From: Patescibacteria group bacterium | GTDB taxonomy: Bacteria; Patescibacteriota; Microgenomatia; UBA8517 | Length of the DNA stretch: 64,000 bases | Reading direction: 5' to 3' | NCBI GenBank assembly: GCA_025999275.1 | Contig: AP024680.1 | Location: 684,522 to 748,521 of the forward strand | Shown: positions 1,744 to 64,000 of the stretch, in pieces | Numbering within the stretch: position 1 is the first letter of the stretch | How the letters are laid out: every line of letters starts with the position of its first letter | Made by a program: the position numbers and the translations under genes | Notes under the pieces: model-generated | Told to the model about the DNA's origin: nothing | The model's database searches: none | Seen by the model: the letters and a program-made list of their open reading frames with translations, nothing else

Positions 1744-2790
1744 ATGAAGGCTAATTTATTTGATTATTTCCTCCCTCAAAATTTAATTGCCCAAAAGCCA
1801 GCTAATCCAAGAGATAGCTCCAGACTTTTGGTTTTAGACCGAAATAAAGGCGAAATAAGCCATCATATATTTAGAGATATTGTTAAATTCCTAAATAAAG
1901 GCGATGTTTTAGTCTTCAACGACACCAAAGTTTTCCCTGCAAGGATTATGGCCAAAAAGGAAACTGGCGGAAAAATTGAGATACTTTTTCTTGAAGAAAT
2001 CTCTCCGCAAATATGGCAAGTCCTAACCAAGCCAGCAGTAAAAAAGGGCAAAAAAATAATTTTCAAAAACAAAACTTTTGAATGTGTTGAAAGCGGTTTA
2101 AGAACCTTAGTTAAAACAGATATGGATAAAGAAAAACTACTTCCTTTTCTCAAAAAATTTGGCAAAACTCCCCTACCCCCCTATATTAAAAACGGCCAAA
2201 AAGAATCCTACTTGAGACGAGTCTATCAAACAGTCTACGCTCAAAAAGAAGGTTCTGCTGCCGCGCCAACTGCAGGCTTTCACTTTACCCAAAGTCTAAT
2301 AGAAAAAATCAAAAACAAGGGTGTAAAAATCGAGTTTGTCACCCTGCATGTTGGCCTTGACACTTTTGTCCCAATCAAAACCGAAAATCTGGAAGATCAT
2401 AAAATGCACTCTGAATATTTTGAGATCAAAAAAGAAACAATTAAAAATCTGCTTGAAGCAAAAAGTAAAGGAAAAAGAATAATTGCTGTTGGCACAACCA
2501 CTGTGCGAGCTCTTGAAACATTAGCTTCTGACAAGGTCCGTCCTTGTCAAGGAAAAACAGACATCTTTATCTATCCACCTTATAAATTTAAATTAACAGA
2601 TGCGCTTATTACCAATTTTCACCTGCCAAAATCAACCTTGCTTGCACTTGTTTCAGCTTTCACCTCTTACCCCCAAACCAAAGACAAATTTAAAAGCTTC
2701 CAAAAAAGCCTAATTGGCAAAGCCTACAAGGAAGCTGTTAAAGAAAATTACCGCTTTTACTCTTTTGGAGATGCCTGCTTGATACTATAG
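1744..2790 (+). CDS. queA: S-adenosylmethionine:tRNA ribosyltransferase-isomerase
   Basis: QueA hallmarks are present: LFDYxLPxxLIAQ, LHVGxDTF, MHSE, AVGTTxVR, TNFHLP, YRFYSFGDA. The start was chosen at MKANLFDY inside the longer ORF 1699..2790. Confidence 0.9.
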   Translation: MKANLFDYFLPQNLIAQKPANPRDSSRLLVLDRNKGEISHHIFRDIVKFLNKGDVLVFNDTKVFPARIMAKKETGGKIEILFLEEISPQIWQVLTKPAVKKGKKIIFKNKTFECVESGLRTLVKTDMDKEKLLPFLKKFGKTPLPPYIKNGQKESYLRRVYQTVYAQKEGSAAAPTAGFHFTQSLIEKIKNKGVKIEFVTLHVGLDTFVPIKTENLEDHKMHSEYFEIKKETIKNLLEAKSKGKRIIAVGTTTVRALETLASDKVRPCQGKTDIFIYPPYKFKLTDALITNFHLPKSTLLALVSAFTSYPQTKDKFKSFQKSLIGKAYKEAVKENYRFYSFGDACLIL

Positions 2791-5196: not shown

Positions 5197-5982
5197 TCAC
5201 TTTAAATTGTGATGACTCTCCTCACCACACTGGTAAATCCAGTCTACATCCCCATTTAGACTAACTTTTGCATGGCAACCACAAGAAGTATTTTTTATCT
5301 CAACCCCCCAACCCATCTTTAATCTGCTAAAATCATCTGGAGGGTTTTTCGAATTCCTTAATCTTTCAACAATTGGCGCTTTGGGATCAGCAACTACTTC
5401 AAAACCAAACCTGCGATACTCTAACACCATCTGATGCCATAAATAACGCGCCCAATTGTAAGATCTAGGCCTTTTTTCTTTATCCAAAAGATTAATTGGA
5501 AAACGTGGTTTTCTTGGTTTTTCAAATCTTGCCTCCCAAACACAAAAACCACTCAATGATGAGTTAAGAACATTTCTTTCAACAAGCCCTAGATCAATAA
5601 GTTTTCCTTCTCTATCCTCTTTGGGAACTTTCTCACCAGTTTTTTCAAAAACATAAAAAACAGCCGCCTTTTTCATATCCTCAACAGGCACAACTTCCAA
5701 ATCCAAAGAAGTGCAAACAATAACAACAGCAGCAAGTTTCTTGGGTCTCTTATCAACTTCCAACACCTGCCAATTTAATGGGTTAAAATAAGAAATTTCT
5801 ATATTCTCACCATTGTAATTAATTAAAACAGCATCTCCTTTTGGTCTATGTTGCCAAATTTTTCTTTTCTCAAGGAAAGTAACTATTTGACCCCCATAAT
5901 CTTTATCTAAGATGCTTTCAGGCACAAAAAACTTATTATCTTCTATGCCAAACCTCAATTGTGAGCTCATCCTTTCTTTCAT
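5197..5982 (-). CDS. Hypothetical protein (C-terminal CxC...C..HH cluster)
   Basis: 261-aa ORF with no recognised family. C-terminus reads SCGCHAKVSLNGDVDWIYQCGEESHH. Confidence 0.5.
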   Translation of the reverse strand: MKERMSSQLRFGIEDNKFFVPESILDKDYGGQIVTFLEKRKIWQHRPKGDAVLINYNGENIEISYFNPLNWQVLEVDKRPKKLAAVVIVCTSLDLEVVPVEDMKKAAVFYVFEKTGEKVPKEDREGKLIDLGLVERNVLNSSLSGFCVWEARFEKPRKPRFPINLLDKEKRPRSYNWARYLWHQMVLEYRRFGFEVVADPKAPIVERLRNSKNPPDDFSRLKMGWGVEIKNTSCGCHAKVSLNGDVDWIYQCGEESHHNLK

Positions 5983-9840: not shown

Positions 9841-10266
9841 ATGGCAAAGAAAGTAAAGGTTGTAATCAAAGTGAATCTAAAAGGAGGAGAAGCAACTCCA
9901 GCTCCCCCATTGGGGCCGGCTTTAGGACAACATGGTGTTGCTATTATGGATTTCGTTAAGGCCTACAACGACAGGACTAAAGATATGAAAGGCCAAGTTG
10001 TCCCAGCTGTAATTACTATTTATGAGGACAGATCATTTGATTTTGAGATTAAAAAGGCTCCAGTTTCAGAAATGATTAAAAAAGAACTTGGTCTTGAGAA
10101 AGGCTCAGGTCAGGCATTAAGAGAAACAATTGGCACATTGACTAAAGAACAGCTTGAAAAAATTGCCAAAGAGAAAATAGATGATTTTAATACTGACGAT
10201 CTTGAAGCAGCCAAAAGAATTGTTGCTGGAACAGCAAGAAGCATGGGGGTTAAGGTAGAAGAATAA
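9841..10266 (+). CDS. rplK: 50S ribosomal protein L11
   Basis: MAKKVKVVIKVNLKGGEATPAPPLGPALGQHGV is the canonical L11 N-terminus. Confidence 0.95.
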   Translation: MAKKVKVVIKVNLKGGEATPAPPLGPALGQHGVAIMDFVKAYNDRTKDMKGQVVPAVITIYEDRSFDFEIKKAPVSEMIKKELGLEKGSGQALRETIGTLTKEQLEKIAKEKIDDFNTDDLEAAKRIVAGTARSMGVKVEE

Positions 10267-10346
10267 AACAAATAGACTACCTTAATCTGATTGTAAAAGT
10301 CAAAAGTTTAGAATTTAGATATTAGAGTTTAGAATTTTTTAAAAAT

Positions 10347-11159
10347 ATGGGAAAAACAAAAACAGCATTTGTTACAGGAACTCTTGAAGAAAATCTATCA
10401 GGAGAAGAAAAATATAAATTAAGGCTTAAGAAAAAGGCAGAACAAGAAGCCAAACAAAAAGCCAAAATTGAAGGCGTGGGCCTAAAAGGAGGAGAAAGAA
10501 TAAAGGTTGTAGGTGGTGAAATTCCTCAAGAAGAACCCAAAGAAGAAAAAATTGTTGAAAAGAAAGTTCAAAGAAAAAGATCAAGGGGCAAAAAATACTT
10601 GGCTTCAAAACAAAAGATAGACAAAAATAAAGAATACGAAGTCAAAGAAGCAATTAAACTAGTCAAGGAGGTTTCTTACTCTTCTTTTGACGGCACGATG
10701 GAGGCTCACTTAACCGTCAAGAAACAAGGTCTTAATGTAAGCATTAGCCTTCCCCACTCAACCGGCAAAACCAAAAAAATTGAGATTGCAGATGAAAAAA
10801 CAATAGAAAAACTGCAAAAAGGAATTATTGATTTTGATATTCTTTTGGCAACCCCTGATATGATGAAAAATCTTCTTCCTTTTGCAAGATTGCTTGGGCC
10901 AAAAGGACTTCTTCCCAATCCCAAGAACGGCACTTTGATAAAAACAAAAGAAGACGCCAAAAAGTTCTCGGCAGATAAAATGCAGCTTAAAACTGAAAAA
11001 GATTTTCCTCTAATTCACACTATTTTTGGAAAAGTAAGCATGGACGACAAAAAACTGGCTGAAAATTTAGAAGCAATAATCGACGCTATTGGAAGAAAAC
11101 AAATTGTAAAACTATTTATCAAATCTACAATGAGTCCGTCTGTGAAAGTAAAAATTTAA
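10347..11159 (+). CDS. rplA: 50S ribosomal protein L1 (with ~80-aa Lys/Glu-rich N-terminal extension)
   Basis: Core ...EAIKLVKEVSYSSFDGTMEAHLTVK...LPHSTGK...LLATPDMMKNLLPFARLLGPKGLLPNPKNGT matches L1. Confidence 0.9.
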   Translation: MGKTKTAFVTGTLEENLSGEEKYKLRLKKKAEQEAKQKAKIEGVGLKGGERIKVVGGEIPQEEPKEEKIVEKKVQRKRSRGKKYLASKQKIDKNKEYEVKEAIKLVKEVSYSSFDGTMEAHLTVKKQGLNVSISLPHSTGKTKKIEIADEKTIEKLQKGIIDFDILLATPDMMKNLLPFARLLGPKGLLPNPKNGTLIKTKEDAKKFSADKMQLKTEKDFPLIHTIFGKVSMDDKKLAENLEAIIDAIGRKQIVKLFIKSTMSPSVKVKI

Positions 11160-11227
11160 TCTCCAATCCATTCCACGCCGGGCTTGGAATAGCTTCGCAA
11201 GCCGGGTTTTATAAACTAAAACCCCTC

Positions 11228-11256
11228 TTGACTTAAGATTAAATAAAACATATAAT
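11228..11256 (+). promoter_or_regulatory. Sigma-70-type promoter of the rplJ-rplL operon
   Basis: TTGACT (11228-11233), 17-bp spacer, TATAAT (11251-11256). Confidence 0.55.
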
Positions 11257-11336
11257 CTTTTTGTTCCTAAGAAAGTGTGTTTTTAGGGCAACCTAAAGTA
11301 AATCGCACCGAGGAGCCAAAAAATTGTTTTTTTATA

Positions 11337-11358
11337 GGCGCCTTGGCGGCGCTTTTTT
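11337..11358 (+). terminator. rplJ leader attenuator-like hairpin plus T-run
   Basis: ggcgccttggcggcgc (gcgcc/ggcgc stem) followed by tttttt, between the promoter and the rplJ start. Confidence 0.45.
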
Positions 11359-11399
11359 AGTTGGCAAACTGGACAAGGTCGGACCCTGTCCCAAAGGAT

Positions 11400-11918
11400 A
11401 TGAAAAGAACTGAAAAAACATTGTTTGTAGAAAACCTAAAAGAAGAGCTAAAAAGCTCAACTTCTGTGGTGCTGATTGACTTTCAAGGCCTTTCAGTAAA
11501 GCTCCAGCAGGATTTGAAAAAAAGACTCAAAGAAGTTGGCGCCAAGATGGTTGTTGTCAAAAACACCCTCTTTAAAATCGCTTCAAAAGGCGCCAATATG
11601 CCAGAGGAAATCACATCAGACACTGTCCTTTGCGGCCCAAGCGCTATTGTTATTACAGAAGGTGATCCAATCGCTCCACTTCAAGTTTTAGCCAAATTCG
11701 CAAGCGAATTTGAAATTCCTCAATTTAAAGTAGGAGTAGTTGAAGGAAAATTCCAAGATAAAGAAAATTTAATTGCTCTTTCAAAGCTTCCTTCCAAAAA
11801 TGTCCTTTTGGGTCAAGCACTTGGCAGCATCTCCTCCCCTCTTTATGGAATTGTTGCTACTTTACAAAACAACTTACAGAAATTGGTTTTTATATTAGAT
11901 CAAGCAAGTAAAAAATAA
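11400..11918 (+). CDS. rplJ: 50S ribosomal protein L10
   Basis: MKRTEKTLFVENLKEELKSSTSVVLIDFQGLSV... typical L10. The ORF-track start 11361 would include the REP-like hairpin ggacaaggtcggaccctgtcc, so M at 11400 was chosen. Confidence 0.9.
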   Translation: MKRTEKTLFVENLKEELKSSTSVVLIDFQGLSVKLQQDLKKRLKEVGAKMVVVKNTLFKIASKGANMPEEITSDTVLCGPSAIVITEGDPIAPLQVLAKFASEFEIPQFKVGVVEGKFQDKENLIALSKLPSKNVLLGQALGSISSPLYGIVATLQNNLQKLVFILDQASKK

Positions 11919-11935: not shown

Positions 11936-12355
11936 ATGGCAGAAGAAAAACAATCAAAAACAGTTGAAGAATTAGTTGAAAAAATTGCAAGCCTTTCAGT
12001 TTTGGAGCTCTCAGAATTAACTAAAGCTTTGCAGGAAAAACTTGGTGTTTCTGCAATGCCTGTTGCCGCCGCTGCTGCTGCACCTGCTGCCGGAAGCGCT
12101 GATCAGGCACAAGCTGAAGGAAATTCTGATAGTGCAGGCGGCGCAAACCAAACTTTGGTTATGACCAATGCCGGTGCAAATAAGATTGCTGTTATCAAAG
12201 CTCTTCGCGAGATCAATCAGAATTTGACCCTAATGGACGCAAAAGGAATGACTGAAAATGTTCCTGCTGAGATCTTAAAAGATGCCAAAGCAGAGGATGT
12301 TAAGGCTGCAGCTGACAAACTAAAAGCAGCTGGTGCAACTGTTGAGATTAAATAA
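11936..12355 (+). CDS. rplL: 50S ribosomal protein L7/L12
   Basis: MAEEKQSKTVEELVEKIASLSVLELSELTKALQEKLGV, Ala-rich hinge, C-terminal VKAAADKLKAAGATVEIK. RBS gagaggggg. Confidence 0.9.
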   Translation: MAEEKQSKTVEELVEKIASLSVLELSELTKALQEKLGVSAMPVAAAAAAPAAGSADQAQAEGNSDSAGGANQTLVMTNAGANKIAVIKALREINQNLTLMDAKGMTENVPAEILKDAKAEDVKAAADKLKAAGATVEIK

Positions 12356-12500
12356 AAATAGCAATCTTGCTATCTTTTAATAAAAGGGCTGAGTCTTTCA
12401 GCTCTTTTATTTTTGTAAAAAACCTATCATCTTAAGGAAGATTCACTAGCAAAAAGAATTGACAAGGATATCAACAAAATGTAATTATTAAATTGCACAC

Positions 12501-12530
12501 CACTATCAATACATCGATGTATTGATAGTG
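12501..12530. promoter_or_regulatory. Perfect 30-bp palindrome (candidate operator) abutting the start of the TrpR-like gene
   Basis: cactatcaatacatcgatgtattgatagtg is its own reverse complement. It ends 6 bp before ATG 12537. Confidence 0.5.
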
Positions 12531-12536
12531 GGAAAA

Positions 12537-12989
12537 ATGCCTAAATTATCATCAAAGAAAATAGATAGGCAGCTGGAAAAAGAAATACTAAACCAATTTT
12601 GGGTATCTATTGCCAAAATAAATACTGTTGACGGCGCTTCGCAATTCTTCTCAGATATACTCACTGAAACAGAAAAAAAGATGATTTCAAAAAGACTTGC
12701 TGCCGCTATTCTTCTTGCAAGAGAAAAGTCGGCAACAGATATCAAAAACTCATTAAACCTCACCTACTCAACCATAGGAACAATTGCAGCATGGGTAAAA
12801 AACGCCAAAAAAGAAACACGAAGAATACTCTTGCAATTCTCAAAAGAAAAAAACTGGGAGGCTATAGTTGATAAAATTGAGGAAATCCTCGATAAACTAC
12901 CGCCAAGATACGGCACTAACTGGTCACTGGTGGAAAAAGAAAGGTACCAAAGAAAAATCAAAAGAGCAAGAAAATCTCTCCTTCGCTAA
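12537..12989 (+). CDS. TrpR-like (YerC/YecD family) helix-turn-helix regulator
   Basis: FFSDILTETEKKMISKRLAAAILLAREKSATDIKNSLNLTYSTIGTI matches the YerC/TrpR-like pattern (FFxDLxTxxE...LAxRLxVAxML...TYxEI...STATI). Confidence 0.6.
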   Translation: MPKLSSKKIDRQLEKEILNQFWVSIAKINTVDGASQFFSDILTETEKKMISKRLAAAILLAREKSATDIKNSLNLTYSTIGTIAAWVKNAKKETRRILLQFSKEKNWEAIVDKIEEILDKLPPRYGTNWSLVEKERYQRKIKRARKSLLR

Positions 12990-39711: not shown

Positions 39712-39781
39712 AATTAAGATTATAACAACAAATAGTGGAAAGTAGAAAGCATTATTGAACAGGGTCCGACCCTGTCCAAAA

Positions 39782-43074: not shown

Positions 43075-43134
43075 TGACAAGGTCCGTCTTTGTCAAAAAC
43101 CAAGGCGAGAAACTGACAAGGACGGACCTTGTCA
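43075..43134. repeat. REP doublet (REPIN-like): tgacaaggtccgtctttgtca ...18 nt... tgacaaggacggaccttgtca
   Basis: Each unit is an 8-bp stem (tgacaagg/ccttgtca) with a 5-nt loop. The two units are in opposite orientation at 43075-43095 and 43114-43134. Confidence 0.7.
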
Positions 43135-50507: not shown

Positions 50508-50567
50508 TGACAAGGTCCGTCTCTGTCAATTTACCAACTCGATTTTTGACAAGGACGGACCTTGTCA
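50508..50567. repeat. REP doublet: tgacaaggtccgtctctgtca ...18 nt... tgacaaggacggaccttgtca
   Basis: Units at 50508-50528 and 50547-50567. The spacer atttaccaactcgatttt resembles the spacer of the 58117-58176 doublet. Confidence 0.7.
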
Positions 50568-52146: not shown

Positions 52147-52167
52147 ATAAATAGGTAAAAGGCAAGA

Positions 52168-52711
52168 GATAAAGGGTAAAAGGCTATCAGCCATCAGCTA
52201 TCAGCCATCAGCCAAAGGACACCTTAAGGGTGTACTAGGTTGGCACCTAACTGATTAACTCAAAAGTCAAAAGGCAAAACTCAAAAGTACAATTCAAAAT
52301 TTAAAATTATTTAATTATGCAATTAAACCTTTGACTTTTAACTTGCAATTTTGACTTTTGAATTTTAATTTTTGAATTATTTTATTCTTAATTCTTAAAT
52401 CGTGAATCTTAATTCTTTTTTACCCTTACTACTTACTGCTTTCTACTTACTATTATCTTCCAGCTCTGACTAACTTAGACTAACTCCGACCAACCCCGCC
52501 GCAGGCGGGGCCAACTTTGACTAATCCCGCCGCAGGCGGGGACTAACTCCGACCAACTCCGACCATCATCTGACAAATGATAGCTGATGACTGGTAGCCG
52601 TTTCGTCAGGTGTCAACCTATTTTGAAAGAAGGTGCCAACCTAGTACACCCTTAAGGTGTCCTTTGGCTGATGGCTGATAGCTGATGGCTGATAGCCTTT
52701 TACCTTTTATA
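52168..52711. mobile_element. MITE-like non-coding element with ~80-bp terminal inverted repeats
   Basis: Left end ggctatcagccatcagctatcagccatcagccaaaggacaccttaagggtgtactaggttggcacc (52182-52247) is the exact reverse complement of 52632-52697. Inversion symmetry extends ~15 bp further (ggtaaaag / cttttacc). The interior has AT-rich long hairpins and cccgccgcaggcgggg GC-rich repeats. No ORF. Confidence 0.55.
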
Positions 52712-52734
52712 TATTTCTAGCTATACTTAAACCA

Positions 52735-56308: not shown

Positions 56309-56318
56309 ATCCTTCTTC

Positions 56319-56406
56319 TGACAAGGTCCGTCCTTGTCAGTAAAATTAGCCTTGACAAAACTACTCGTTCTATCAATAATGAATTTGACAAAGACGGACC
56401 TTGTCA
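56319..56406. repeat. REP doublet immediately upstream of the RAYT gene
   Basis: tgacaaggtccgtccttgtca (56319-56339) and tgacaaagacggaccttgtca (56386-56406) in opposite orientation with a 46-nt spacer. Confidence 0.7.
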
Positions 56407-56414
56407 AAAAGGCT

Positions 56415-57113
56415 ATGCCCGCAAAAAACAGCTTAAAAGTGTTTGCAGAAAATACCTACTATCATATCTACAACCGTGGTGTTGAAAAGAGAAATATATT
56501 TATAGATAACCAAGACTACGAGGTTTTCTTAAATCTACTAAAGTATTATTTATCCGAAAATAACCAAGCAATTTACCACCCCATTGAAATAATTGCACCA
56601 GATAACAGGCCCCTAAGGCCAAGACCTCTTAAAAATCTAAACAAAGAAATTGAACTAATAGCCTACTGCCTTATGCCCAATCATTTTCACCTACTAATAA
56701 AGCAGATCTCAAAAGATGGAATGACAAAGCTAATGAGAGCATTATCTACCAGCTATGCCCTTTATTTTAACCGTCGCTACAAGCGCGAAGGAACCCTTTT
56801 CCAAGGAAGATACAAAGCAGTTATTATTAAAAATGACTCATACCTTCTTCATCTCTCGCGATATATTCATCTTAACCCCTCAAGCATATTGACAAGGACG
56901 GACATTGTCACTTGGCCCTATTCAAGCTACTCATACTTTCTTGGAACAAAAAAGGCTGACTGGGTAAAACCGCAAATTGTCTTAGATTTCTTTAAAAGGC
57001 CTGAAAATTCCCCTATCCCGCTAGAAAAATTTCAAACCTACCAGCAATTCGTTGAGGCTGGCAAGGAAAATCCTAAGGAAAATATAGAAAAACTAATACT
57101 CGAAGATGAATAA
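56415..57113 (+). CDS. REP-associated tyrosine transposase (IS200/IS605-like HUH enzyme, RAYT type)
   Basis: TYYHIYNRGVEKRNIF (Y-H-x-x-NRG), LIAYCLMPNHFHLLI (HuH motif), FQGRYKAV and YIHLNP (catalytic Tyr region). Start taken at ATG 56415 after the REP doublet. Confidence 0.75.
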   Translation: MPAKNSLKVFAENTYYHIYNRGVEKRNIFIDNQDYEVFLNLLKYYLSENNQAIYHPIEIIAPDNRPLRPRPLKNLNKEIELIAYCLMPNHFHLLIKQISKDGMTKLMRALSTSYALYFNRRYKREGTLFQGRYKAVIIKNDSYLLHLSRYIHLNPSSILTRTDIVTWPYSSYSYFLGTKKADWVKPQIVLDFFKRPENSPIPLEKFQTYQQFVEAGKENPKENIEKLILEDE

Positions 57114-58110
57114 GCCACAATTATCACCTGACAAGGTCCGTCTTTGTCAGATCAGTATAACTACAATCATTTTGTTTTTAATACCTAATAACACCATCAG
57201 AGCTCAAACAGCAACTCCGGTAACTAGTGATACTACTGTATCTGTCACTTTCAAAGTAGTCGAGGGAGAAACTCCAACCCCAACTGCCACTACTACCCCC
57301 ACCCCCATAACCAGTGGAACACCCACTCCTACAATTTCTCCCCAACCACAAATATCCCCAACACCCACACCAGAAGCCACCAAAGCCCCTCAAATCAATC
57401 TAAAGATATTCGGTTATGGCCCGCCTGATATACCAGTATCCTTAGTGGGAAAAAACATCTTAGAATTAACCACATCAAACGAGATTGGTTATTTCGAGTT
57501 TAGGAACATTCCCCTGCCAGAAATAAAAGGATTATTTAAACTATATCCTGAGCTTTGCCTGCAAGGTTACTATAAAGAGAGCTCAACACAGCCAGTTTGC
57601 CTACCAAGGCTGCCGGTAGGCAATCTCGAATACAATATCGGCCCTGTCATCCTTTCCCCAATTATAATAATTGAAAAAGGAGAAATCGCCTCAGGTGAAC
57701 AAGTAAAAGCAACCGGTAAAACCACACCCAATTCAGAAGTTTCAATTTACCTAGCCAAAGAAAAACAAAAAACATTCTTTAATTTTTTTGAAGAAATAAA
57801 ACTCATAAAGACTGCCTCAGCTTACTATCTCCCAAAGTATCAAACAACATCAAATGCCAACGGAGACTTCGAATTTAACCTACCTAGCGAATCACCGGCA
57901 AAATGGCGTCTTTTTTCCGCAGCTTCCTTCCAAGGCCAAAACTCTCCCAAGAGCAACACTCTTTCCTATCTAGTTGTCCCAAAAACATTTGAATTCTTTA
58001 AGAATATAATCGGTTTTCTTATTTCATTCTTCTCTCACTGGTTTTCAATTCTTATCGCAATTGAAATTGTATCTATCATCATTCTTCTATACTTTACCAG
58101 CAAAGATTGA
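57106..58110 (+). CDS. Hypothetical secreted Thr/Pro-rich protein with C-terminal TM
   Basis: 334-aa ORF. The stated N-terminus (MNKPQLSPDKVRLCQ) is encoded by a REP hairpin, so the real start is probably downstream at the signal peptide ISITTIILFLIPNN. Confidence 0.45.
   Translation: MNKPQLSPDKVRLCQISITTIILFLIPNNTIRAQTATPVTSDTTVSVTFKVVEGETPTPTATTTPTPITSGTPTPTISPQPQISPTPTPEATKAPQINLKIFGYGPPDIPVSLVGKNILELTTSNEIGYFEFRNIPLPEIKGLFKLYPELCLQGYYKESSTQPVCLPRLPVGNLEYNIGPVILSPIIIIEKGEIASGEQVKATGKTTPNSEVSIYLAKEKQKTFFNFFEEIKLIKTASAYYLPKYQTTSNANGDFEFNLPSESPAKWRLFSAASFQGQNSPKSNTLSYLVVPKTFEFFKNIIGFLISFFSHWFSILIAIEIVSIIILLYFTSKD
57129..57149. repeat. Single REP unit tgacaaggtccgtctttgtca just after the RAYT stop
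   Basis: Same 8-bp stem / 5-nt loop hairpin. Confidence 0.65.
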
Positions 58111-58116
58111 AGGGAT

Positions 58117-58176
58117 TGACAAGGTCCGTCCTTGTCAATTTACCGCTTTGATTTATGACAAAGACGGACCTTGTCA
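58117..58176. repeat. REP doublet: tgacaaggtccgtccttgtca ...18 nt... tgacaaagacggaccttgtca
   Basis: Units at 58117-58137 and 58156-58176. Spacer atttaccgctttgattta. Confidence 0.7.
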
Positions 58177-58187
58177 GAAAAGCAAAA

Positions 58188-58739
58188 CTAAAGTTCAAAG
58201 GTAACGGTTACTCGTTGAGGTAAAACTTTGCCATCAACTGAGGCCTCAATTGAATAAACTCCGGCCACCGAAGAAGAAACTTCAAAAATTGCCTTGCCAA
58301 CATCATCAGTAATAGGCTGAACCTCGTCGACTTCCAGATTGTCACTCTTGCCCAAAACCACCATCTTGCCACCAACCCCCAAACCTTGAGAATCAAGAAT
58401 AAAAATAGTTATTCTTATCCTTTCCCCACTTGCCACCTTAGCTTTTAGAGGAGAAGCAAAAAGATAAGAATTGGCAAGCTCCATTTTGCGTGTCAAAGAA
58501 GAACTTTCAGCCTTGCTTGATATTCTTGTTCTTTCAGAAACTAAATAAACTGAATAAACAAGCCCTAAAAGTAAAAACAAAACCAAAATAATAAGAAACA
58601 AAGTCAAGAGAACACTCTTCCTTTTTTCCCTATTTAGCTCTTCTCTTTGTTTTTTTATCTCATCCTCTTTGTCTGTCAATAAAATTTCCGGCTTTTTTGA
58701 GTCCAGATAAGCAGGATTCTCTAGATCTTGACTAATCAT
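58188..58739 (-). CDS. Membrane-anchored protein with C-terminal Ig-like/Big-like beta domain
   Basis: 183 aa. TM (VLLTLFLIILVLFLLLGLVYSVYLV), then a beta-rich ~100 aa. Confidence 0.45.
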   Translation of the reverse strand: MISQDLENPAYLDSKKPEILLTDKEDEIKKQREELNREKRKSVLLTLFLIILVLFLLLGLVYSVYLVSERTRISSKAESSSLTRKMELANSYLFASPLKAKVASGERIRITIFILDSQGLGVGGKMVVLGKSDNLEVDEVQPITDDVGKAIFEVSSSVAGVYSIEASVDGKVLPQRVTVTFEL

Positions 58740-59276
58740 TATTTCAAGATACTATATAAAATACACCTTTTCAACACCTGGGAAACTCCTTTTCCCTCAC
58801 AAAAAATTGTTTAAAGCATCAAAGATCAATATACCGTAAAACAGGCGTTATTTGCCACTTTTTTTTATTAGCAAACAAGATTGATAAGTGACAAATTGAG
58901 GCTAAAATCATATTCAAAAAAACAAAAAATTAAAAATCATAAGATGCAATTAAAGATGATCGAATTAATCCATTAACCGCAAAATCAACGCAAGACCTAT
59001 ATTTTTTTTATACCCTTCTCCGCAATAAATTTTATCTTATTTTTGAAAATTATTTAAAATACTATCGGAATTGCAAAAAATATATTTAGATATATTTAAG
59101 TAAGCAAAAATATTATGCGGAAAAAATGTTATTGACACTGTGAAAATTATAGCTTATTTAAGGGCTTTTTTTAGCTTTAATCAGCTCTTGACAATTATTA
59201 ATAAATAATTTTAGAATAGTATAATGCATATAATTTGTATAATCTAGCCTCAATTTATGATAATTATCTAAAAACC

Positions 59277-62200
59277 ATGATAGACCGCATAACACAACTT
59301 TTTCTGCAGTACTTAAAATCCTGTAATGTTTCGGAAAAAACTCTTCGATACTACAAATCTGATATTGCCATGTTTTCAGCCTGGCTAATATTTCAGGCAA
59401 AATCAATTGGAGCTGATTGCAACAATCTCCAAGAAGCTTTACCCTTCATTAACAAAAAAACAGCCAAGGAGTATAGAGACTTCCTTATCAAAAATGGCAA
59501 CTCAATTCAAACCATCAATCGCCGGCTTTCAACCTTAAGAACATTTTCAAAATTTCTCTTTGAAAACGAGCTGCTCTCTTTTAACTTCGCTAAAAAAATA
59601 AAAAACATTTCAAGATCTGTTTTCATTCCCCCACTCTCACAAGCAATAAACCAATTCTCCTCATACCTGGAATCACAAAAAGTATCTGCCCTAACCAGAA
59701 AAAATTATCTTGCAGATATTAATCAATTTTCCAGATGGGTAGAAAAAACTGGCAAAAAAGAAGTTAAGGAAATAACATCAAAAGATATAAAAAGATATCT
59801 AATCATAGAATTGTCAAATGCTCCTGAGGCTACAAAAGATAGAAAAATTTCTTCACTAAAGAAATTCTTTACCTGGGCAGTTCAGGAAAGTAAAACAAAT
59901 ACAAATCCAGTTGAAGAATATCTAAAAGACACTGCTTACTTAAAGCCAATAGAAAAATCCATTTCTGAGCTTACAGAACCTAGTATTAACCGCAAAGTTT
60001 TCGGTAATTATCCTTCCTATGAGAGCTTGAAAGAGAAAATTAACGCATATATTGCGGATAAACCCAAGTTACAGAAGCTAGTCTACCATCTTCTCTATAC
60101 CAGACCTAAGTGGTACAAAGCTTATCATTCCCTTGCAATCAGTCGTTATATTAACTTTGCCATTCTTACCATTTTTGCTGCCGGGCTTGGATTCGGAATT
60201 TATCAACAACTTTTTGCCAAACCTCAAACACCTATTGCCTATCCCACTCAACCAGTTGCACCAAAAAGATATCTTTCCTTTCAAGGTCGTCTGACAAACC
60301 AATACAATACCCCCATTACTACTGCCACAAATATTATCTTTAAACTTTATGATGCTTCAACTGGTGGCAATGTCCTTTGGAATTCTGCTGGTGTTTCCTG
60401 CTCTATCACCCCTGACCAAGACGGAATCTTTTCAATTCTCCTTGGAACTCAATCGGGTGACGGCTATACCTGTACTGGCATTTCCGGCATTGACGCCTCT
60501 GTATTTAGTGAAAACGCTGAGGTCTGGCTAGGAATAAAAGTTGGTTCTGATCCTGAAGCTACCCCCAGAATTCAAATTGCTACCGTTGCCTATGCTTTAA
60601 ATGCTGAAACACTTCAAGGCTATCCCATCAACGCGACAGGTTCTGCTACTGTCAATACAGTTTTAACTATGAATTCAGGTGGCGAGGTTGTTTTGGCAGA
60701 AGTAGGACCAAAGATAAAATCTGTTTCCGGTAATTTTGGAATCCAAGGTGAAGCAATTACAATTCAAGCAAACGGAGGTGGAATCCCCGGCGATATTACC
60801 CTTTCCCCTTCCTCAAATGGAACTGTATCCATTTTGGCAAGCGGTACAACAAATGATTCTTTATATATCCAAAACGCTCAAATAACATCAGGAGCATTGA
60901 TCCACGGATATTATGGCGGAACAGCAACTAATGTTGATCTTCTAAAACTTGGCGCAGGTCCAAGTGAATCAACAAAATTCCTAGTTGAATCATCTGGTGA
61001 TACATTTATCGCCTCAGGTGCCGACTTGTTCATCGGAGGGATAGGGCTAAATGATAACAGCTCTACATCCTCAGGTGCTTCACTAATCGGTGTCTTTGAT
61101 GATTCAATGACATATATATCAGGTAATACCAATGTTCAATCTGCTATTAAGCAATTAGATACTGCCATTGGTAGCCTTTCAGGATCAGCTAGTGGATGGA
61201 CTGATGATGGAGTCATAGTAAGACTTACTACTTCATCTGATAGAGTTGGTATTGGAACAACCATTCCCAACTCAGCCAATAAACTAGCAGTTTTAGGTGG
61301 TGTGGGAATAGGATCAACAGCATATACAGAAGCTGCTGGAGCCCCAACTAATGGGATGATTGTTGAAGGAAATGTGGGAATTGGTACTACTGCCCCTCTT
61401 GCTACTCTTGATGTTGCTGGAAATATTCTTGTTAACAATGGTGGAACAATCGATACAAGATCAGCTGGAACACTAACTATTGGTGGAACAATACAAACAG
61501 GATTGACACTAGGAAGAAGTGGAGCAACTACCACCATAGCAGGATCTTCTGTTAATGTAGCCAATTTAACAACAGATGGAGTTGTATATACCTCAGGTGG
61601 TAATGGAACACTGAATTCTGAAGCTCTTCTTGCCATATCAAGAGGTGGAACAAATTCAAATGCTACTCCAACAGCAGGAGCAGTAGCATATGGTACAGGA
61701 ACTGCATATGCCTTCAATACTGCCGGCACTTCAGGACAACCTCTACTTTCAGGAGGAACAGGAGCACCTACATTTGGAACATTGGGACTAACATATGGTG
61801 GGACAAATGCTGACCTTTCAGGTGTAGCAACAGGAGGATTAATATATAAAGGAGCTTCTGCTTTAGCTGGTACATCTGCACTAACAGGTATTCTTCAGGG
61901 TAATGGATCATCAGCTCCATCTGCCATTACTGGTACTGTCAATTACATACCAAAATGGAGTTCATCTGCCCCCTACCTTACTGCAACATCACTAATATAT
62001 GATGATGGAACAAATGTAGGTATTGGAACAACTGTTCCTACAAAAGGAAAACTTAATGTATTAGGTTCTGTTGCCATTGGATCAACTGCATACACAGAGA
62101 CTAGTGGTGCTGCACCAACAAATGGAATGATTGTTGAGGGGAATGTGGGAATTGGGACAACAGCTCCAGCATATAAGCTTGATGTTAGTGGTGATATTTA

Positions 62201-64000
62201 TTCATCAGGAAATATAAGAGCTAATACTGATTTATACATTGCGGGAACTGCCTTGTCTGCCAATACTTCAACAACATCAGGTGCATCAAAGGTTGGTCTA
62301 TATGATGATTCAATGACATATATATCAGGTAATACCAATGTTCAATCTGCTATTAAACAACTTGATACTGCAATAGGTAGCCTTTCAGGATCAGCTGGTG
62401 GATGGACTGATGATGGAACAATTGTAAGACTTACTACTTCAACTGATAGAGTTGGTATTGGTACAACATCTGTTAATGCAAATACAAAGCTTGGTGTTCT
62501 TGGAGGTGTTGCCATTGGAAGCCAGACCTACTCTGATGCTCAAGCTCCTACTAATGGAATGATTGTTGAGGGTAATGTGGGAATTGGAACTACCAACCCA
62601 TCCACTTTCAAACTTGAAATAGCCGGCTCAGTCGGCCCATCAGCTGATAACACATACAATCTTGGTTCTTCATCAAGAAGATGGGCAAACATCTACGGAA
62701 CCAATATCTACGGCAATATAACTCCCTCTGGTTTTACCCAAGGATCTGTAATCTTTGCTGGCACTGGAGGAGTTCTTTCTCAAAACAACTCTCAATTCTA
62801 TTGGGACAATGCTAATTACAGGCTAGGAATTGGAACAACAACCCCATCTGTTTCCATTGATTCAACTGGAAGTTTAAGACTTACAGCTGGAACTTTCCAA
62901 ATTGGCAACGCTGCAAATGCAGCTTACAATAGAATTGGCACTTCAGCTACCAACCGTGGACTTTCCGCTGCAAACGATCTCTTGATCAATGGTAAACTCG
63001 AAGTCGACCAAGCCCTATTCCCTGATTCAGGTATTTACGGTTCAGCTGGAACACTGGTTGTTAACTTTCCTAACAACGACGCCTGGTTCTCAGATGAAGT
63101 TTGGGTTGATGGAAAAATTGGTATTGGCACAACATCACCTGTTTCAAAATTCCATGTCAGATGGTCCAACACTAATTGCGGCAGCCAATGTTTCACAGAT
63201 GCGGCAGTCTTTGAAAATAACGGTAATGTATTTCTTCAATTAATGGGTAGTAATTCTGGCGAAAAATCTGTTAATTTTGGATCACCAACAAACGGTGCCG
63301 CAGGCGCCATAAAATTTAACTACCACAATTTGAATGAATTAAGCTTTTGGACTGGAGGCAATGTTGAACAAATGGTAATTAGAGAAAATGGGAAAGTCGG
63401 CATCGGGACGACGGCGCCGGGGATGAAATTAGACGTCTCTGGAGATATAAGAGCAAGTGGAGAAACAATTGGAACTATCGGGAGTGGATACGGCCAATTT
63501 AGAGCAATATCTGGCAACTATGGCTTTATGCTTAGAAATGATGGGTCAAATACCTATTTTCTTCTTACTGCTTCTGGTAATCAATATGGTAGCTGGAATA
63601 GTTTAAGACCATTCCGTATAGCTAATGCCACTGGCGATGTGGCCCTTGGAAATGATACCTTGTATGTAGTTCACGGCGGCAACGTCGGCATCGGGACGAT
63701 AAGTCCACTACGCAAACTTGAAGTAAACAATGCAATGAAATTTACAAATAATTCTGCCGATACCAATGATGGTGTAATCGGCACCGCGCCTTTTCTTGCT
63801 GGACTTAATATCGTTGGTATTAACACTGATGGTGGCGGTCGCAAAATAAACTATTGGGGTTCACTTATTCAGAATGAGAACCCCGTTGGGAATACCTTTA
63901 TTGGTAATACATTTTTCCCTGGCTCTGGGGTTTGGAATTCAGCCGGCAACGTCGGCATCGGGACGACAAATCCGGGTTATAGATTAGTAGTAAGTCAAAC
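59277..64000 (+). CDS. Giant (>1570 aa, 3' end beyond window) glycine-rich repeat protein: two integrase-SAM-like N-terminal domains + TM + GNVGIGTTxP-type repeats
   Basis: Frame 0 is open from ATG 59277 to the window end. It is absent from the ORF track only because it has no in-window stop. The N-terminal ~270 aa contain two copies of a pattern like the tyrosine-recombinase N-terminal SAM/core-binding domain (SEKTLRYYKSDIAMFSAWL...IQTINRRLSTLRTFSKFL; LTRKNYLADINQFSRWV...RKISSLKKFFTWA). A TM helix FAILTIFAAGLGFGIY follows. Then >1200 aa carry recurring GMIVEGNVGIGTTAP..KLDV.G and SMTYISGNTNVQSAIKQLDTAIGSLSGSA blocks. Confidence 0.75.
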   Translation, partial: MIDRITQLFLQYLKSCNVSEKTLRYYKSDIAMFSAWLIFQAKSIGADCNNLQEALPFINKKTAKEYRDFLIKNGNSIQTINRRLSTLRTFSKFLFENELLSFNFAKKIKNISRSVFIPPLSQAINQFSSYLESQKVSALTRKNYLADINQFSRWVEKTGKKEVKEITSKDIKRYLIIELSNAPEATKDRKISSLKKFFTWAVQESKTNTNPVEEYLKDTAYLKPIEKSISELTEPSINRKVFGNYPSYESLKEKINAYIADKPKLQKLVYHLLYTRPKWYKAYHSLAISRYINFAILTIFAAGLGFGIYQQLFAKPQTPIAYPTQPVAPKRYLSFQGRLTNQYNTPITTATNIIFKLYDASTGGNVLWNSAGVSCSITPDQDGIFSILLGTQSGDGYTCTGISGIDASVFSENAEVWLGIKVGSDPEATPRIQIATVAYALNAETLQGYPINATGSATVNTVLTMNSGGEVVLAEVGPKIKSVSGNFGIQGEAITIQANGGGIPGDITLSPSSNGTVSILASGTTNDSLYIQNAQITSGALIHGYYGGTATNVDLLKLGAGPSESTKFLVESSGDTFIASGADLFIGGIGLNDNSSTSSGASLIGVFDDSMTYISGNTNVQSAIKQLDTAIGSLSGSASGWTDDGVIVRLTTSSDRVGIGTTIPNSANKLAVLGGVGIGSTAYTEAAGAPTNGMIVEGNVGIGTTAPLATLDVAGNILVNNGGTIDTRSAGTLTIGGTIQTGLTLGRSGATTTIAGSSVNVANLTTDGVVYTSGGNGTLNSEALLAISRGGTNSNATPTAGAVAYGTGTAYAFNTAGTSGQPLLSGGTGAPTFGTLGLTYGGTNADLSGVATGGLIYKGASALAGTSALTGILQGNGSSAPSAITGTVNYIPKWSSSAPYLTATSLIYDDGTNVGIGTTVPTKGKLNVLGSVAIGSTAYTETSGAAPTNGMIVEGNVGIGTTAPAYKLDVSGDIYSSGNIRANTDLYIAGTALSANTSTTSGASKVGLYDDSMTYISGNTNVQSAIKQLDTAIGSLSGSAGGWTDDGTIVRLTTSTDRVGIGTTSVNANTKLGVLGGVAIGSQTYSDAQAPTNGMIVEGNVGIGTTNPSTFKLEIAGSVGPSADNTYNLGSSSRRWANIYGTNIYGNITPSGFTQGSVIFAGTGGVLSQNNSQFYWDNANYRLGIGTTTPSVSIDSTGSLRLTAGTFQIGNAANAAYNRIGTSATNRGLSAANDLLINGKLEVDQALFPDSGIYGSAGTLVVNFPNNDAWFSDEVWVDGKIGIGTTSPVSKFHVRWSNTNCGSQCFTDAAVFENNGNVFLQLMGSNSGEKSVNFGSPTNGAAGAIKFNYHNLNELSFWTGGNVEQMVIRENGKVGIGTTAPGMKLDVSGDIRASGETIGTIGSGYGQFRAISGNYGFMLRNDGSNTYFLLTASGNQYGSWNSLRPFRIANATGDVALGNDTLYVVHGGNVGIGTISPLRKLEVNNAMKFTNNSADTNDGVIGTAPFLAGLNIVGINTDGGGRKINYWGSLIQNENPVGNTFIGNTFFPGSGVWNSAGNVGIGTTNPGYRLVVSQ

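Follow-up and report, generated by a model that had tools for sequence, protein, structure and literature searches.

Among the closest described systems are the following three. The E. coli REPtron (rayT/yafM; PMC3333891, PMC3479197, PMC8266576) consists of a single-copy gene for the Y1 HUH enzyme TnpA-REP (PDB 4er8), flanked by repetitive extragenic palindromic (REP) hairpins which are also scattered in the genome. In the REPIN-RAYT systems of Pseudomonas and enterobacteria (Bertels & Rainey; PMC3116915, PMC5581495), the REP-associated tyrosine transposase (RAYT) is accompanied by REPINs, inverted pairs of REPs that are separated by a short spacer and form one long hairpin. In the IS200/IS605 insertion sequences, such as IS608 and ISDra2, near-identical hairpins border the coding sequence. 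How REPs are copied, how the RAYT benefits the cell and how RAYT and REP are matched are open questions, and so far almost only proteobacteria have been studied. Here we analyzed a 64,000-nucleotide stretch (the window) of contig AP024680.1 from a Patescibacteria group bacterium, in which a RAYT-like HUH gene is surrounded by copies of a short hairpin. We hold with good confidence that gene and hairpins form a REP/REPIN-RAYT system of a Microgenomates/Woesebacteria-like Patescibacteria genome, one that has no GTAG tag. The gene is:

56415..57113, + strand: RAYT-like Y1 HUH gene, 232 aa, with YYHIYNRG, NHFHLL (the HUH motif) and RYIHLNP (catalytic Tyr150)

An earlier reading of the window, made without database searches (the sequence-only reading), had described the product of open reading frame (ORF) 56415-57113 as an IS200-like HUH protein with Y-H-x-x-NRG and HuH motifs. 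The HUH identity and the motifs are confirmed. The protein passes the Pfam Y1_Tnp model (PF01797) with 49 bits against a cut-off of 23; His90, His92, Tyr150 and YHxxNRG are invariant in 98 homologues, in which NHFH, QG and S-R-Y-x-H-x-N-P are also invariant or almost so. The profile check proposed at that time placed the protein closer to RAYT than to IS200, with 49.4 bits for NCBIfam REP_Tyr_transpos and 13.2 bits for NCBIfam IS200 (cut-off 55), but the RAYT equivalog cut-off of 80 was not reached. The AlphaFold model, which was built from 98 homologues, has a mean local confidence (pLDDT) of 84.6 and a predicted TM score (pTM) of 0.85. As its top match, Foldseek returned E. coli TnpA-REP with a REP hairpin (4er8; E=4.7e-7, TM 0.67 on the target), followed by the IS608, ISDra2 and IS200 TnpA proteins with E about 2e-4; the PDB sequence search gave a marginal match to 4er8 (E=0.83). 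Taken together, motifs, profiles and predicted fold support the assignment of the product as a probable RAYT-type Y1 HUH enzyme. Homologues are abundant in Microgenomates-type bacteria of the candidate phyla radiation (CPR), including Woesebacteria, Chisholmbacteria and Shapirobacteria; the profile search found 2,108 clusters (50% identity) at E<=1e-30 and 18,756 at E<=1e-10.

The hairpin is 21 nt in length and of the form TGACAAGG-N5-CCTTGTCA. Searching the window for TGACAAGGNNNNNCCTTGTCA at <=2 mismatches gave 11 matches, starting at 2529, 43075, 43114, 50508, 50547, 56319, 56386, 56890, 57129, 58117 and 58156. Only 0.01 matches are expected, and none of 100 shuffled windows reached 11. The sequence-only reading had counted at least nine; it had overlooked the copies in the RAYT-like ORF (56890-56910) and in queA (2529-2549). 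Six of the 11 lie no more than 2 kb from ORF 56415-57113, and when the repeat flanking the gene is taken as the starting point, the window holds seven further copies versus 0.01 expected. Because the stem is a perfect palindrome, the polarity of a unit can be read from its loop alone: units with a TCCGT loop are of F form, and those with its reverse complement, ACGGA, are of R form. The copies, none of which is assigned a strand, are as follows:

56319..56339: REP unit, F form, perfect, the distal upstream unit of an 88-nt doublet
56386..56406: REP unit, R form (TGACAAAGACGGACCTTGTCA), ending 8 nt before the ATG of the RAYT-like gene
56890..56910: REP unit, R form, within the RAYT-like reading frame, encoding LTRTDIV between YIHLNP and PYSSY (site 2)
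57129..57149: REP unit, F form, 16 nt past the RAYT-like stop, in the N-terminus of ORF 57106-58110, encoding PDKVRLCQ
58117..58176: F-18 nt-R doublet, REPIN-like, in the gap between ORFs 57106-58110 (+) and 58188-58739 (-), which converge
50508..50567: REPIN-like doublet 5′ of leuS (- strand), in a spacer from which the genes diverge
43075..43134: REPIN-like doublet between the 3′ end of argS and the 5′ end of an M16 peptidase gene
2529..2549: REP unit, F form, perfect, in frame in queA, encoding DKVRPCQ in a variable loop

Four doublets occur in the window and their order is always F then R, i.e. they are inverted. The spacer is 18 nt in 43075-43134, 50508-50567 and 58117-58176, and 46 nt in 56319-56406, with coordinates and spacings exactly as in the sequence-only reading. 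The surroundings given there need some correction. The doublet at 43075 lies between argS and the peptidase gene, and the one said to follow leuS (50508) is upstream of that gene, in a divergent spacer. A doublet directly 5′ of the HUH gene was correctly noticed. The single unit and the doublet after the gene are both present, but the single unit at 57129 is in fact inside the next ORF. When folded as single-stranded DNA, every doublet gives a single long hairpin (-20 to -22 kcal/mol, z -6.6 to -7.8). Every doublet is composed of one perfect unit and one with a stem change, a G.T wobble on the TCCGT-loop strand, and in doublet 50508 the imperfect unit has one additional change; therefore, the long 21-bp stem is never without imperfection. 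The spacers of doublets 50508 and 58117 agree at 12/17 positions and the 43075 spacer, as its reverse complement, is similar; these are the only three 60-nt units in the window. Judged from their sequences, the related spacers fit copying of a 60-nt unit.

Two diverged hairpins exist where the sequence-only reading had placed them, before rplJ and between the rsmI-like gene and ndk:

11371..11391, no strand: diverged hairpin GGACAAGGTCGGACCCTGTCC, GGG/CCC stem, in the rplA-rplJ spacer (L10 identity confirmed)
39757..39777, no strand: diverged hairpin GAACAGGGTCCGACCCTGTCC, GGG/CCC stem, between a TP_methylase/rsmI-like gene and ndk

Both resemble the current REP of relatives in which site 2 reads LTGSDPV, and from this resemblance they look like fossils of an earlier REP variant. 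The Rfam scan of the whole window identified five tRNAs only, and no family covers the hairpins.

To follow the hairpins beyond the window, we collected 80 metagenomic loci of homologues (39-54% identity). Four segments per gene were mapped with a profile hidden Markov model: U, the 120 nt upstream of the gene; site 1, between helix 1 and the following strand (window residues about 56-70); site 2, between YIHxNP and PYSS (residues 156-167); and D, the 120 nt downstream. U and D share a 10-mer in 67 of 87 unique genes (77%). A 10-mer is shared with the flanks by site 1 in 20 and by site 2 in 30 of the 87 genes; for either coding site the number is 45 (52%), compared to 6% in the cross-locus control. 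In 74 of 89 homologous genes, a core of >=12 nt is common to two of the four positions. The canonical positions of the copies are located just upstream of the start codon, at site 1, at site 2 and just past the stop codon. The hairpin sequence is wholly different between loci, yet it matches at all positions within one locus, as in these examples:

Locus L060: CCTGCAGGGCCAGGCCCTGCAGG
Locus L057: TCTCGCAAGGCGTCCCCTTGCGAGA
Locus L016: GTAAAGGAGACTCCTTTAC
Locus L008: TGACAGGGTCTCGCCCTGTCA
Locus L092: TTGACAGGGCCGCACCCTGTCAA

The locus hairpins have a common apex, A-R-G-G-(T) / (A)-C-C-Y-T; the lower stem and the loop vary. Flanking copies often form tight inverted doublets, and some doublets in relatives are direct (R,R). 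Distant copies are sparse, with 27 in 570 kb of homologue loci, but exceed the 4.7 expected from the cross-locus control; they occur in 13 of 31 long loci. REP populations in these genomes look low-copy. At the level of sequence, the comparison demonstrates genome-specific hairpin families which are tied to the HUH gene, are dispersed at low copy number and form REPIN-like doublets; it also demonstrates concerted evolution of the copies at the four canonical positions, inside and beside the gene.

The RAYT-like gene lies within a + strand row of secreted/surface-protein genes. Its stop codon and the beginning of ORF 57106-58110, which comes next, overlap (ATGAATAA), and the 64-kb window contains one copy of the gene. 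The surroundings of the gene were compared in four relatives: the complete Woesebacteria genomes Ch104a (L002) and Ch104c (L088), a 780-kb JGI contig (L089) and a 97%-identical relative (L097). The row of leuS, five ORFs, the RAYT-like gene, one ORF and a Big_1 gene is the same in the window and in all of them. Between these genomes the RAYT-like protein is 77-80% identical, versus 63-68% for QueA. Fixed place, single copy and slow divergence are the behavior of a domesticated RAYT, not of an insertion sequence; as far as gene order and sequence tell, this is a vertically inherited host gene, single-copy within the window. The REP/REPIN-RAYT organization proposed by the sequence-only reading is supported by the protein fit, the fixed place of the gene, the flanking hairpins and the folding of the doublets.

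The same data bear on another interpretation, in which the gene and its two flanking hairpins would be an autonomous IS200/IS605-type insertion sequence and all other hairpins would be solo ends or remnants. The predicted fold matches IS608, ISDra2 and IS200 TnpA as well, two loci (L076 and L080) each carry two paralogous genes, and the same hairpin brackets the gene tightly, 2-40 nt ahead of the ATG and between -3 and +30 nt relative to the stop, like sub-terminal end hairpins. However, one copy in 64 kb, an unchanged place among the same neighbors in five genomes and a divergence below that of QueA are not what such an element would show. Moreover, the stop codon runs into the start of the following host gene, which also contains the downstream hairpin, the NCBIfam IS200 score is 13 bits against 55, and doublets with their own spacers lie far from any copy of the gene. 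We therefore consider an insertion sequence very unlikely.

In L076, the paralogous RAYT-like genes are at 10001-10705 and 12031-12732, and the same doublet follows both. In L080, one is at 5226-5939 and the other on the - strand (10956-11675 on the reverse strand), each with its own hairpin family. In L088, L089 and L092 the RAYT-like gene is about 1-7 kb from record position 1, which could reflect genome rotation or assembly breaks in a difficult region nearby.

It can also be asked whether the hairpins are host regulatory elements that are functionally independent of the HUH gene, such as terminators, mRNA-stabilizing stem-loops or the palindromic operator of some DNA-binding protein. Several copies are located at gene ends or in divergent promoter spacers, the 5′ arm contains the -35 consensus TTGACA, and promoter-like sites overlap copies. 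One copy (56384-56408, - strand) has a T tract beside it and fits the terminator pattern. However, the other ten of the 11 copies do not, so intrinsic termination was ruled out as the general explanation; the generic terminator, which the sequence-only reading had itself named as the counter-case, is thereby set aside, the more so as the hairpin is tied to the gene in homologues. In addition, in-frame copies occur within three coding sequences. Finally, the hairpin changes from genome to genome yet matches the copies at the HUH gene of that genome (87 genes; control 6%), and this association is family-wide. A purely regulatory origin is thus highly improbable; secondarily, some copies may have a regulatory use. 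A promoter-like site upstream of the gene is:

56352..56380, + strand: promoter-like site TTGACA-17-AATAAT, 11/12 consensus matches, within the spacer of the doublet upstream of the gene (a match to the consensus only)

It is the best promoter-like match in 16.5 kb, and TTGACA is found at the corresponding place also in L088, L089 and L097. If this consensus match acted as a promoter, the transcript start would fall at the proximal hairpin. The REP 5′ arm, TTGACA(AGG) in units preceded by T, equals the sigma-70 -35 consensus on both strands (e.g. 56318-56346), and REP copies would hence be able to supply -35 boxes.

Comparison of the close relatives revealed turnover of the hairpins. The loop polarity is flipped between orthologous copies: the units at window 56319 and 57129 are F, and their counterparts in L002, L088 and L089 are R. 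Point mutation is insufficient for such a flip, which needs inversion or replacement. The window has the doublet upstream of leuS, L088 has a degenerate form of it, and L089 lacks it. The window and its closest relative, L097 (97% protein identity), are 96.8% identical over 7.4 kb and differ by three multi-base indels, two of which are at hairpins. At L097 3695-3779 (window 56317), an extra 85 nt with a GGG-type hairpin (GGAACAGGGTCAGACCCTGTCC) sits beside the distal upstream REP; at L097 3860-3870 (window 56397), 11 nt of the 3′ arm of the proximal REP are duplicated. The in-gene copy of L097 differs from that of the window at 2 of 21 positions, and it is identical to the proximal upstream copy of L097.

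In the 19 homologues that were aligned (54-97% identity), site 2 of the RAYT-like gene is filled at one and the same codon position; across the 98-sequence set, its L-T-x-x-x-x-V frame returns with few substitutions. The clade of the window has L-T-[G/R/K]-x-x-[P/L]-V at this site; at the DNA level, base 1 of the G/R/K codon forms a pair with base 2 of the P/L codon. Among the 98 proteins, these combinations were counted:

G with P: 39, Watson-Crick pair
R/K with L: 42, Watson-Crick pair
G with L: 10, G.T wobble
R with P: 5, mismatch

Double changes at site 2 in these proteins, T...V to K...F twice and T...V to I...I twice, are all compensatory. In an alignment of nine site 2 DNA sequences, 87% of the cells are paired and five pairs are changed on both sides; the covariation score was reached by none of 500 shuffles, and the slid controls collapse. 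The stems run past the REP core by locus-specific pairs, which covary. L002 and L089 encode the same peptide, PLSLVTRTDLVTSW, and their synonymous third-position changes, CTT/ACA versus CTA/ACT, pair with each other and keep the 12-bp stem; this pair is the sole example of synonymous compensatory change. Together, these comparisons of sequences demonstrate that base pairing within the coding sequence is preserved.

Within a single gene, sites 1 and 2 can carry identical DNA in different reading frames (L060, L030), which makes the peptide a passenger. Conservation driven by the peptide was ruled out as an explanation of the in-gene sites, since peptides and frames vary between loci and sites while the DNA is identical. 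Nor is there support for the in-gene copy being a 7-codon insertion: site 2 equals the corresponding part of E. coli TnpA-REP in length, loops that contain a copy are about as long as those that do not, and the queA loop is not longer than that of T. maritima QueA. In the control, E. coli K-12 rayT, the flanks share 68 10-mers mutually and none with the coding sequence.

An in-frame REP in the variable loop of QueA is found in at least three genomes (window 2529-2549, L095 2117-2137 and L096 10789-10809). All of these copies encode DKVR[PL]CQ; one change in the 3′ arm gives L095 Leu for Pro. The window and L095 have the hairpin loop TCCGT, and L096 has TTCGA; the difference is synonymous, and it agrees with the REP type of the RAYT locus L009. 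Other homologues have DRDGPCQ or DGPCQ at the same place. The observations suggest either that the QueA loop is an insertion hot spot or that an old in-frame copy has undergone concerted evolution.

By analogy with E. coli TnpA-REP and the IS200/IS605 TnpA proteins (PMC3479197, PMC8266576), the enzyme would recognize the folded hairpin on single-stranded DNA, cleave beside it by means of Tyr150 and an HUH-bound metal, and then rejoin the strands. Such cleavage and rejoining may copy, replace or flip hairpin units, most strongly near its own gene, in cis. The in-gene hairpins would be retained as nucleic-acid structures, not for their peptides. Most likely, the enzyme would target them in cis, and they would serve either its self-limitation or as a master REP copy that is protected by selection.

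Whether the in-gene hairpins are functional rather than merely tolerated is, in our judgment, evenly balanced. The REP-RAYT relationship may hold with the in-gene copies being passive: REPs would land near the gene and survive, without function, in two loops that tolerate any peptide. The same REP is in frame in queA and in the next ORF as well, intragenic REPs are documented in other bacteria (PMC3733652), peptides and reading frames vary freely at both sites, about half of the genes only have a current in-gene copy, and the window's own copy has a stem mismatch. Different from what passive copies would lead one to expect, however, site 2 is occupied at one codon position across the 19 aligned homologues with its frame recurring in the 98, the locus-specific stem extensions covary, with one synonymous pair among them, and E. 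coli rayT, although flanked by REPs, is without an in-gene copy. We give the passive explanation somewhat less than an even chance. As a tentative alternative, possible rather than probable, we propose that a very large CPR-wide RAYT-like subfamily (about 2,100 clusters) carries its own target hairpin in frame at two fixed surface loops, one of which comes right after the catalytic-Tyr helix, and that these hairpins are selected as DNA or RNA structure, for cis self-control or as a master copy which reseeds the REPs.

Several observations weigh against the REP-RAYT interpretation or parts of it. None of the 11 window copies is marked by a conserved GTAG (GT[AG]G) or other 5′ tetranucleotide, their flanks being cttc, ctac, cacc, ggat and others. 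The HUH protein scores below the NCBIfam RAYT cut-off (49 versus 80 bits), and binding and cleavage are derived from homology to 4er8 at 14% identity. Among the 31 long homologue loci, 18 have no distant copy within 10 kb, and a related genome of 802 kb holds just seven exact 21-mers. The homologue loci compared follow no fixed orientation rule for flanking and in-gene copies. As for the in-gene hairpins, the covariation counts at site 2 ignore the kinship of the sequences, the site 1 and site 2 loops are nearly equal in length in genes with and without a current copy, and the in-gene copy of the window contains a G.A mismatch and folds weakly (-5.7 kcal/mol).

The window shows some further features. 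An 85-nt inverted repeat (52164-52248 and 52631-52715; 96% complementary, 382 nt between the arms) is located in a 590-nt spacer just upstream of the surface-protein row that holds the RAYT-like gene. Its arms contain GCTATCAGCCATCA twice; 10/31-nt repeats and two CCCCGCCGCAGGCGGGG hairpins are in its interior. Short contigs of the close relatives L097 and L090 end in or beside this region, and the repeat may be an invertible segment or an element like a miniature inverted-repeat transposable element. The GC skew of the + strand over window 1-64000 is negative nearly throughout (to -0.33), regardless of gene orientation, and weakens only past about 60.5 kb, within a very large ORF. A published complete genome from the Microgenomates is described in the title of its paper as having unusual strand disparity (PMC7143001). 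The open frame at 59220-63998 (+) has at least 1,593 codons and runs off the right end of the window; its counterpart in L089 exceeds 1,165 aa, and it probably encodes a giant surface protein.

The genomes are minimal (about 0.8 Mb), their REP populations are small and the hairpin is very short and simple, which makes this system attractive for study. Through the in-gene copies, which change together with the copies outside, REP-RAYT co-evolution can be read directly from comparisons of thousands of metagenomic loci. If the in-gene hairpins were selected, this would explain how REP and RAYT remain matched over long vertical descent. The repeat units also shape CPR coding sequences, as in the QueA loop and the N-terminus of a surface protein.

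Compared to the E. coli REPtron, the locus is alike in its Y1 HUH gene, single-copy within the window, with flanking hairpins that are also found elsewhere in the genome. E. coli TnpA-REP is the best structural match of the predicted model, and the two proteins have YHxxxRG, HUH, Q-x-R/Y and Y-I-x-x-N-P followed by WP[FY]S[ST][FY] in common, as well as an extension C-terminal to the Tyr helix. However, they share 14% identity and are 232 aa and 165 aa in size, respectively. Different from the E. coli REP, the window hairpin is short (8-bp stem), is a perfect palindrome but for the loop and has no GTAG foot; its copies would number in the tens, not the hundreds, and the window gene, unlike E. 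coli rayT, has a REP in its reading frame.

The Pseudomonas and enterobacterial REPIN-RAYT systems are similar in their inverted REP pairs with a short spacer and one long hairpin, in the doublets with related spacers at separate loci, and in a vertically inherited gene that changes more slowly than a housekeeping gene. The differences are the 60-nt units, the low copy number, the direct (R,R) doublets of some relatives and the host phylum Patescibacteria. With IS200/IS605 (IS608, ISDra2) the locus shares the fold, the catalytic motifs and the near-identical hairpins bordering the coding sequence; however, the gene is neither multi-copy in the window nor mobile as a unit in the clade, and the protein has an NP motif after the Tyr and a long C-terminal extension, with 13 bits for NCBIfam IS200. 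TnpA-Y1 classes 2.6 and 3 (Quentin et al. 2018, PMC6006769) also have flanking hairpins without GT[AG]G, and some of their subclasses have large C-terminal domains; they were defined on complete genomes of Bacteroidetes, Acidobacteria and others, and the CPR family was compared with them by description only.

In-frame palindromes in variable loops, with passenger peptides as in queA, ORF 57106 and the RAYT-like gene, are known as intragenic REPs and Rickettsia palindromic elements (PMC3733652). Compared to those described there, the in-frame copies here are in the gene of the presumed mobilizing enzyme itself, at two fixed positions and in concert with the flanks. The consulted part of that REP survey mentions overlaps of REPs with RAYT genes at the 5′ and 3′ ends only. 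The literature searched contains no report of RAYT or REP systems in Patescibacteria/CPR, and the portions of the RAYT/REP literature covered contain none of internal REP copies in a RAYT gene; absence there is no proof in either case. The system shows most of the defining features of REPtrons and REPIN-RAYT systems, except the GTAG foot and the curated equivalog score. What sets it apart from known REPtrons is the host phylum, the type of hairpin, the copy number and, above all, the in-frame REPs at two fixed sites.

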